Assembly (NCBI RefSeq): GCF_000143415.4
Contig: NW_003314261.1
Coordinates: 3,960,880-4,024,879 of the forward strand
From: Selaginella moellendorffii
Lineage: Eukaryota; Plantae; Lycopodiophyta
Direction: 5' to 3'
DNA: 64,000 nucleotides
Shown: positions 9,115-9,630 of the stretch, piece by piece
How positions within the stretch are numbered: the first letter of the stretch is position 1
Layout of the letters: each line of letters starts with the position of its first letter
Notes under the pieces: model-generated
What the model was told of the DNA's origin: nothing
The model's input: only the letters and a program-made list of their open reading frames with translations
Databases searched by the model: none
Translations under genes and position numbers: made by a program

Positions 9115-9160
9115 GTATGGGGTATTAAGTCAAGTTGTTGGCACTAACACTTCTTGACAG
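9115..9160 (+). other. Spliceosomal intron 1 in A1 integrase (46 nt)
   Basis: AG|GTATGG...CACTAAC...TTCTTGACAG|AC. Removal restores [24 protein letters not shown]. Confidence 0.93.
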
Positions 9161-9578
9161 ACGGACAAACGGAAAGGGTGAATAGGCAGCTGGAGGATTA
9201 TTTGCGATGCTATGTCTCGGGAGACCAGACCGATTGGGTAAGTCATTTGGGACTTGCGGAAATGTGTTATAACAACTCACCGCATTCGAGTATCGGGGTG
9301 AGTCCATGGGAAGTCATCAATGGGCGAGCTATTGAAGGTCCTGTGGAACTCGGCGTGGCCGAGTATCATGGAGAGTTGCCCGCAGTGGAGGCATTCACGG
9401 CGGAAAGACTCAGCATTTGGAATCTAGTGAGGGATTCCTTGGAACGGGCTCAACAAAGGCAAACCAAATACGCGAACCAGAAGCGTCGGGATGTAGAGTT
9501 CCAAGCTGGGGAGAAGGTGTGGCTGAACACCAAGAACCTCAGACTACCAAGTGGGATCAGCCGAAAGTTGACCCAAAG

Positions 9579-9630
9579 GTAAAGATGCATGTATTCCTGT
9601 AAATGAATTGATCTTGAGTTCCTTAAGCAG
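9579..9630 (+). other. Spliceosomal intron 2 in A1 integrase (52 nt)
   Basis: AAG|GTAAAG...TTCCTTAAGCAG|G. Removal restores [26 protein letters not shown]. Confidence 0.93.

Follow-up and report, generated by a model that had tools for sequence, protein, structure and literature searches.

How could two LTR retrotransposon copies in a 64-kb window of the Selaginella moellendorffii genome (the whole stretch of DNA analysed here) come to carry apparent spliceosomal introns inside their integrase, when the disappearance of a sense intron upon transposition is what classically proves retrotransposition? The copies occupy positions 3736-11561 and 21613-29071 (Table 1). Their domain order (gag, protease (PR), reverse transcriptase (RT), RNase H and integrase, with a C-terminal chromodomain) is that of Ty3/gypsy chromoviruses, as are the TG...CA LTRs, primer-binding site (PBS), polypurine tract (PPT) and 5-bp target-site duplications (TSDs), the 3' end of copy 1 reading AA. 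An assembly gap (10597-10914) lies inside the 3' LTR of copy 1, and the LTR pair of copy 2 is 90.2% identical by BLAST (90.235%) and 96.1% identical without gaps.

Table 1. Coordinates of element and host features in the 64-kb window.
Feature	Position	Strand	Remarks
5' LTR, copy 1	3736..4889	+	TG...CA; hexamer repeats; 18-nt poly-G
Intron 0	4850..4915	+	66 nt; GTAAGC...CTCAG; spans U5 end of LTR and whole PBS
Primer-binding site, copy 1	4893..4905	+	presumably tRNA-Met type, by motif
gag	4949..6148	+	Retrotrans_gag, CCHC knuckle; stops at 5315 (common to copy 2) and 5417
Intron A	6149..6305	+	157 nt; alternative; GT..AG joint 6146/6304 in X16
Remaining protease, RT, RNase H	6306..8277	+	stop at 8126 in copy 1 only
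MITE	8278..8565	.	AT-rich; 288 bp; copy 1 only; 4-bp duplication ACAA
Integrase exon 1	8568..9114	+	HHCC zinc finger; both catalytic Asp (codons 8838, 9018)
Integrase intron 1	9115..9160	+	46 nt; phase 1, within the D codon of HPQT-D-GQTE; retention brings an in-frame stop
Integrase exon 2	9161..9578	+	catalytic Glu (codon 9172) and linker
Integrase intron 2	9579..9630	+	52 nt; phase 2; splits R codon before F-x-GPY
Integrase exon 3	9631..10012	+	SH3/GPY-F module, chromodomain, stop
Polypurine-tract-like stretch	10404..10414	+	before 3' LTR; from sequence
3' LTR, copy 1	10416..11561	+	97-99% identical to 5' LTR; TSD GGCAG/GGCAG
5' LTR, copy 2	21613..22689	+	1077 bp
Intron 0 counterpart, copy 2	22650..22715	+	GT...AG kept
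Intron A counterpart, copy 2	23949..24105	+	acceptor decayed to CAA; ACA TAG behind kept
Integrase intron 1, copy 2	26624..26669	+
Integrase intron 2, copy 2	27087..27138	+
3' LTR, copy 2	27925..29071	+	1147 bp; TSD TCCCG/TCCCA (4/5 letters match)
PPR ORF (host)	32495-34636	-
Importin alpha (host)	55860-57920	-	527 aa; 8 introns of 48-66 nt

Both copies are defective. They share an in-frame TAG in gag (5315-5317; 23115-23117), to which copy 1 adds two further stops and the 288-bp MITE and copy 2 adds frameshifts and stops; the published consensus ORF is open where the shared TAG lies, which may reflect a non-autonomous sub-lineage or read-through. The copies differ in position and orientation (opposite) inside copies of another repeat and are therefore separate insertions, and a segmental duplication of one copy was rejected on the same ground. 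This surrounding repeat is LTR-like and bears hexamer repeats (2889-3735 with 11567-12400; 21474-21612 with 29077-30418; 71-81% alike), and the location of both copies inside one other LTR-like repeat hints at targeting of other elements. Between the window copies, introns and exons diverge at similar rates, as decay after insertion predicts. The preliminary description of this locus had concluded that both copies transposed with their introns in place; the LTRs, TSDs and separate insertions agree with this, but both copies are dead and the TSD of copy 2 matches at 4/5 letters. Since both are dead, the argument for intron retention rests on the family and not on the window copies, which, being dead and sharing the gag stop, may have moved in trans.

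Elsewhere in the window, the MITE recurs (8278-8565 and 30781-31068; 288 bp, AT-rich, with ~25-bp terminal inverted repeats and an apparent 4-bp duplication); its two copies are 99% identical and in opposite orientation, implying recent mobility. A second, decayed element lies at ~39700-43500 (+), with RT and RNase H matches in fragmented frames, and further repeats (430-2874/15526-18422 and 19484-21216/47333-48800) are 72-91% alike; they lack a long ORF and show strong strand skew. Besides the host genes in Table 1, two intron-rich genes at 58160-60160 (-) and 60600-64000 (-), read by eye, are presumably WVD2/TPX2-like and patatin-like.

The ORF and LTR lengths, together with the published description, indicate that the element is likely SM1-Galahad of S. 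moellendorffii (Novikov et al. 2012, PMC3350952), which that source places in the Galadriel clade; some Selaginella chromoviruses are listed as unclassified in PMC6317226. SM1-Galahad was described as 7.5 kb long, with LTRs of 1076 and 1146 bp at 90.2% identity, matching copy 2 (7459 bp; LTRs of 1077 and 1147 bp at 90.235%), and as having a 13-bp Met PBS, a type found in both, and an LTR poly-G of 11-25 nt (18, 10 and 13 nt here) (PMC3350952). The published main ORF of 3885 bp (1295 aa) lacks a chromodomain at its end (PMC3350952), and the frame of copy 1 from the ATG at 4949 to the intron-1 stop measures 3888 nt with the stop, after subtraction of a 292-bp MITE insertion. The 309-bp ORF3 with the chromodomain is identical in length here, whereas ORF2 is 316 bp as published and 318 bp in our copy (PMC3350952). 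SM1-Galahad was presented as a truncated ORF plus two short ORFs, from a consensus built on hundreds of copies at ~95% identity, with no intact copy reported (PMC3350952). Because the consensus ORF ends exactly at the intron-1 stop, the integrase split must be family-wide over hundreds of copies. Novikov et al. apparently took the split ORF as damage, and the strings 'intron' and 'splic' occur 0 times in the text of their paper (PMC3350952). The sister family SM2-Galahad has one uninterrupted 1577-aa ORF in hundreds of copies (PMC3350952).

The two integrase breaks proved to lie exactly where the preliminary description had put them, at equal places in both copies, and 4/4 segments begin with GT and end with AG. 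As it had also stated, the unspliced frame halts before the catalytic Glu in both copies (HPQTGMGY followed by a stop), intron 1 falling between the second catalytic Asp and the Glu. Excision restores the conserved motifs, giving in copy 1 a 448-aa stop-free frame that runs through the core, the SH3/GPY-F module and the chromodomain with the D-x35-E spacing exact. The CTAAC branch site noted in intron 1 is present, but its branch A lies at -14, rather near the AG; the only branch-like motif in intron 2 is TTGAT at -20. The likeness to host introns in size also holds, the eight importin-alpha introns in the window measuring 48-66 nt and the 46 and 52 nt of introns 1 and 2 falling at the low end. 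In their GT...AG ends and host-like size, introns 1 and 2 have, by motif, the features of U2-type spliceosomal introns. Short direct repeats flank both (GACAG, 5 nt, at 9110-9114/9156-9160; AGGT, 4 nt, at 9577-9580/9629-9632), a sequence-level hint that the introns may have arisen through an insertion that duplicated its target or through staggered-break repair.

We compared the interrupted motifs with 88 aligned database proteins and with 82 related loci (3 viral and 79 metagenome, the metagenome loci coming from the best 80 of 581 relatives), the latter distant elements at 43-55% identity. At junction 1, 87/87 spanning homologues have no gap; at junction 2, 68/80 spanning homologues have none within a 13-residue window. 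None of the 82 loci carries introns at equal sites or an intron-sized frame break in integrase, and insertions of more than 3 residues are absent from 77/78 loci spanning junction 1 and 69/69 spanning junction 2, as judged by alignment (a motif-distance scan resolved only 26/82 loci). These comparisons mark the integrase insertions as derived and place them in invariant motifs. We rejected ribosomal frameshifting or read-through because the 46 and 52 extra bases interrupt motifs that are ungapped in homologues. Looked for as a protein on its own, exon 2 yielded one unrelated fragment among 30 candidates, and no Selaginella-level protein homologue was found, the best full-length matches being at 46%.

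Transcript evidence came from eight sequencing runs: six contig sets presumed to be RNA (X15-X20, type guessed), one presumed to be DNA (X1) and one recorded as RNA (X24). Only matches of at least 90% were counted, and contigs drop rare variants; the presumed-RNA runs gave 1-14 matching contigs each, compared with 16,058 for X1. Both integrase junctions, for which the preliminary description had proposed a search of transcript reads, were precisely joined in presumed-RNA contigs. Intron 1 was skipped (46 nt, GT..AG) in X16, X17, X19 and X20 (4/6 presumed-RNA runs, two studies) and retained in X15 and X18. Intron 2 was skipped (52 nt) in X15, X16, X17 and X19 (again 4/6, from three studies). 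In X20 it was left unbridged, and X18, which may contain DNA or genomic RNA, reads into it unspliced. Both introns were removed on a single gap-free 2500-nt contig of X16 and on a 1083-nt contig of X17; the former is free of the MITE, of the copy 1 stop at 8126 and of indels in the ORF. Relative to copy 1, the expressed copy diverges by ~3% in pol and by 6% in gag. Mixed states were also seen, with an X15 contig lacking intron 2 and keeping intron 1, and both forms of intron 1 in X20, which is what partial splicing would give. The X15 contig (depth 59), which spans 9081-9880 with intron 2 only spliced, passes from foreign sequence into the element at 9081; its probable source is a truncated copy transcribed by read-in. 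X24 placed 5 reads on 1461 nt, too few for a table of joints. One of them, 150 nt long, has a 46-nt gap in the bin 9109-9157, deduced from the depth table (40+3+49+49+9), covering 9080 and 9234 and not 9118-9138; another runs into intron 2. The RNA contigs give no cover of 6185-6303 or beyond 10070. We regard splicing of the integrase introns in vivo as almost certain.

The presumed DNA run, a single sample distinct from that of the RNA runs and with a guessed label, provided 16,058 contigs on 1461 nt. The intron-2 joint had depth 0 among them, and the intron-1 joint was absent from the 15 joints listed and from one further listed joint; unrelated deletions do appear in X1, at depths of 96-292. 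A count of intron-less genomic forms had been suggested in the preliminary description, and none was seen among these DNA contigs, which serve as a stand-in for genome copies. Precise removal in RNA with presence in DNA is likewise the behaviour of U2-type introns, the run types being partly guessed. Because the junctions are joined in RNA and no intron-less DNA form was seen, the family appears to translate spliced and copy unspliced RNA. This much of the earlier proposal of translating spliced and packaging unspliced RNA is borne out by the data, and its packaging half is inference. The companion idea of splicing as an integrase on-switch holds insofar as unspliced RNA cannot give active integrase; any regulated switch is conjectural, and splicing of the mRNA pool may just as well be constitutive.

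The preliminary description was right about the two integrase introns and missed two further introns (0 and A), as well as the defects of the copies. Intron 0 was recognised from loose contig ends in X16 and X17, two runs of one study; lying before 4914, these ends match LTR positions 4818-4847 at 25/30 letters, directly ahead of an AG/GTAAG donor. The segment so removed, which takes in the entire PBS as well as the final 40 nt of the LTR, is absent from the X16 and X17 RNA contigs, and its GTAAG donor and AG acceptor exist in both window copies. The contigs that bear this joint are separate from those that bear the integrase joints. Inspection by eye of ten related loci that have a Met-type PBS revealed no clear counterpart, and folding of the leader is weak (z -1.85). 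Intron A falls in the protease, and its joint was seen in 1 of 4 runs. In both copies its removal deletes the protease DTG motif and brings in a stop one codon past the junction (Gag only), and its retention leaves Gag-Pol in frame. A contig of X17 starts exactly at 6304, a hint of what a branch point would produce.

From these observations we consider it likely that the locus represents an SM1-Galahad-like chromovirus whose introns are spliced from its transcripts, whose spliced RNA thereby loses the PBS, and in which probably only unspliced RNA is reverse-transcribed. Three RNAs would follow. RNA 1, fully spliced (introns 0, A, 1 and 2 removed), would encode Gag alone, ending one codon past junction A; each of its joints was seen, and only introns 1 and 2 on one contig. 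RNA 2, the Gag-Pol mRNA, is an inferred form that would keep intron A and lack introns 1 and 2, and would be the sole form giving full integrase with the catalytic Glu and chromodomain. RNA 3, the unspliced genomic form, would keep U5 and the PBS, serve as the predicted template and encode only a truncated integrase. Reverse transcription of LTR elements requires a tRNA primer bound at the PBS. An RNA without intron 0 could not bind this primer and would lack the U5 end, and for both reasons it should not be copied. The weakest step is that splicing of introns 1 and 2 would have to be coupled to that of intron 0, or some other sorting would have to bar partly spliced RNA from particles. Since intron 0 comes first, entry into the splicing pathway may, under such coupling, disqualify an RNA as template. 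If only unspliced RNA is copied, the introns are inherited. Why partly spliced RNA is not copied was absent from the preliminary description; a PBS-removing splice offers one reason, and we think it probable that PBS removal is why the integrase introns persist. The fuller evolutionary claim is one that we favour with more reserve: an autonomous LTR lineage would have gained host-type introns in its integrase and kept them through hundreds of reverse-transcription cycles, with intron 0 sorting the RNAs.

The introns could also be real and needed while something other than PBS loss protects them. Candidate protections are a separate promoter or uncapped pool of replication RNA, as in BARE1, which separates its translated and replicated pools (PMC3735527); co-transcriptional capture or export by Gag; a packaging signal inside an intron; and early polyadenylation of spliced RNA before the PPT. 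As a weak hint of the last, spliced contigs from two studies end at 9956, 9969 and 9964, before an AATTAA at 10007 and ~450 nt before the 3' LTR, and an X18 contig continues past 10021. The existence of partly spliced RNA, seen in X15, also speaks for them. However, two runs give direct indications of intron 0, whose removal alone eliminates the PBS, and the non-PBS routes are compatible with PBS loss acting alongside them; we judge it unlikely that they replace it.

Variation among the X1 contigs bears on whether the segments were instead fixed in a non-autonomous family moved in trans (e.g. by SM2-Galahad), splicing being incidental. In its favour are the defects of both window copies with their common gag stop, the lack of any reported intact SM1, and SM2-Galahad as a possible helper, with its 1577-aa ORF and hundreds of copies (PMC3350952). 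Against this stands the pattern of change 3' of both introns. Among common variants (share of at least 30%) in exons 2-3, 13/15 are synonymous in the spliced frame compared with an expected fraction of 0.31 (p ~1e-5), a count drawn from 40 of 149 substitutions that are not independent events, and 6/6 of those listed at intermediate share (0.53-0.65) are synonymous. The indels at a share of at least 2% in X1 fall 3/3 within intron 1, which makes up 46 of the 1461 nt. Because of this synonymous bias, and because exons 2-3 are unreachable without splicing, they appear, on sequence grounds, to have been translated while intron-bearing copies diversified. Moreover, expressed contigs are free of ORF indels, of the copy 1 MITE and of the stop at 8126, and a passenger family too would lose spliced introns unless spliced RNA were barred from copying. 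Movement of a passenger family with incidental splicing is hence very improbable. That the joined contigs derive from an intron-less genomic subfamily or processed copy, for which the guessed run types and the ~3% (pol) and 6% (gag) distance of the expressed copy from copy 1 might be cited, is largely refuted and scarcely credible given the lack of any such joint among those listed for X1, four separate joints that are all GT..AG, mixed states within a contig and within a run, the LTR end and PBS that a DNA copy without intron 0 would lack, and the 1-14 contigs per presumed-RNA run compared with 16,058 for DNA.

The sorting of RNAs by splicing has parallels in known systems. Removal of intron A recalls EVADE (PMC5580714), BARE1 (PMC3735527) and Drosophila copia, where a splice cuts the protease and a frameshift stops Gag while retention gives Gag-Pol, and in BARE1 the spliced RNA is likewise kept from replication (PMC3735527). 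Those elements are Ty1/copia, however, and ours, as Ty3/gypsy, acts like them without being a member; Oberlin et al. saw no conserved splice in Arabidopsis Ty3/gypsy elements (PMC5580714). In copia Pol comes from unspliced RNA, whereas here it needs introns 1 and 2 removed, and unlike EVADE there is no termination right after the junction, the spliced contig running at least 760 nt further, to 7068 (PMC5580714). Ogre is a Ty3/gypsy element whose spacer intron has to be removed in a subset of transcripts to give the full polyprotein and stays in the genomic RNA (PMC6317226, PMC4408406, PMC12786077); here, by contrast, integrase itself is interrupted within codons by two introns of ~50 nt, of which one falls between the second Asp and the Glu, and PR to RT is one frame, so that the intron is not of the Ogre type. 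CRR and env splices are further known cases of splicing in LTR elements (PMC3735527). Penelope-like elements also keep spliceosomal introns after retrotransposition, which is called 'highly unusual among retroelements', but these introns are mostly in the 5' UTR and the elements have no LTR, integrase or tRNA priming and a different mechanism (PMC8557442). Nor does the domain content here correspond to a PLE-type RT without integrase or true LTR.

The major splice donor of foamy viruses sits 5' of the PBS, which their spliced RNAs therefore lack. These viruses make Pol from a spliced RNA that is separate from their genome, as proposed here, but they are retroviruses with long subgenomic splices, no intron in a catalytic domain and a Pol separate from Gag (PMC7828637). 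In the openly searchable literature we found no description of an LTR-element integrase that contains introns, although Repbase, the large REXdb tables or subscription papers may include an earlier annotation; in the accessible portions of PMC2864245, PMC13148404, PMC7197481, PMC7175516, PMC12810828 and PMC2533021 the nearest cases are Ogre and a cryptic Tf2 intron, and a 2025 review treats plant LTR elements as generally without introns except for Ogre and EVADE-type splices (PMC12786077). The element family and splicing in LTR elements were thus already known, and what appears new is the integrase introns, the PBS-removing intron 0 and the presence of intron A in this element.

An abundant family that needs two micro-introns removed for any active integrase breaks the rule of intron loss, and it suggests a simple and testable way in which translated and copied RNA could be kept apart in a retroelement. 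It also presents introns gained recently within an enzyme's most conserved motifs, and the intron-less sister SM2-Galahad allows comparison. Annotation pipelines that take a broken ORF as the mark of a dead element would go wrong on families of this kind, and this one was apparently misjudged in that way in 2012. If the proposed mechanism is true, splicing would sort the RNA of this family into non-copyable mRNAs (for Gag and for Gag-Pol) and a copyable but catalytically dead genome, making this a four-intron splicing programme in an LTR element, whose intron gain would be datable against SM2-Galahad.
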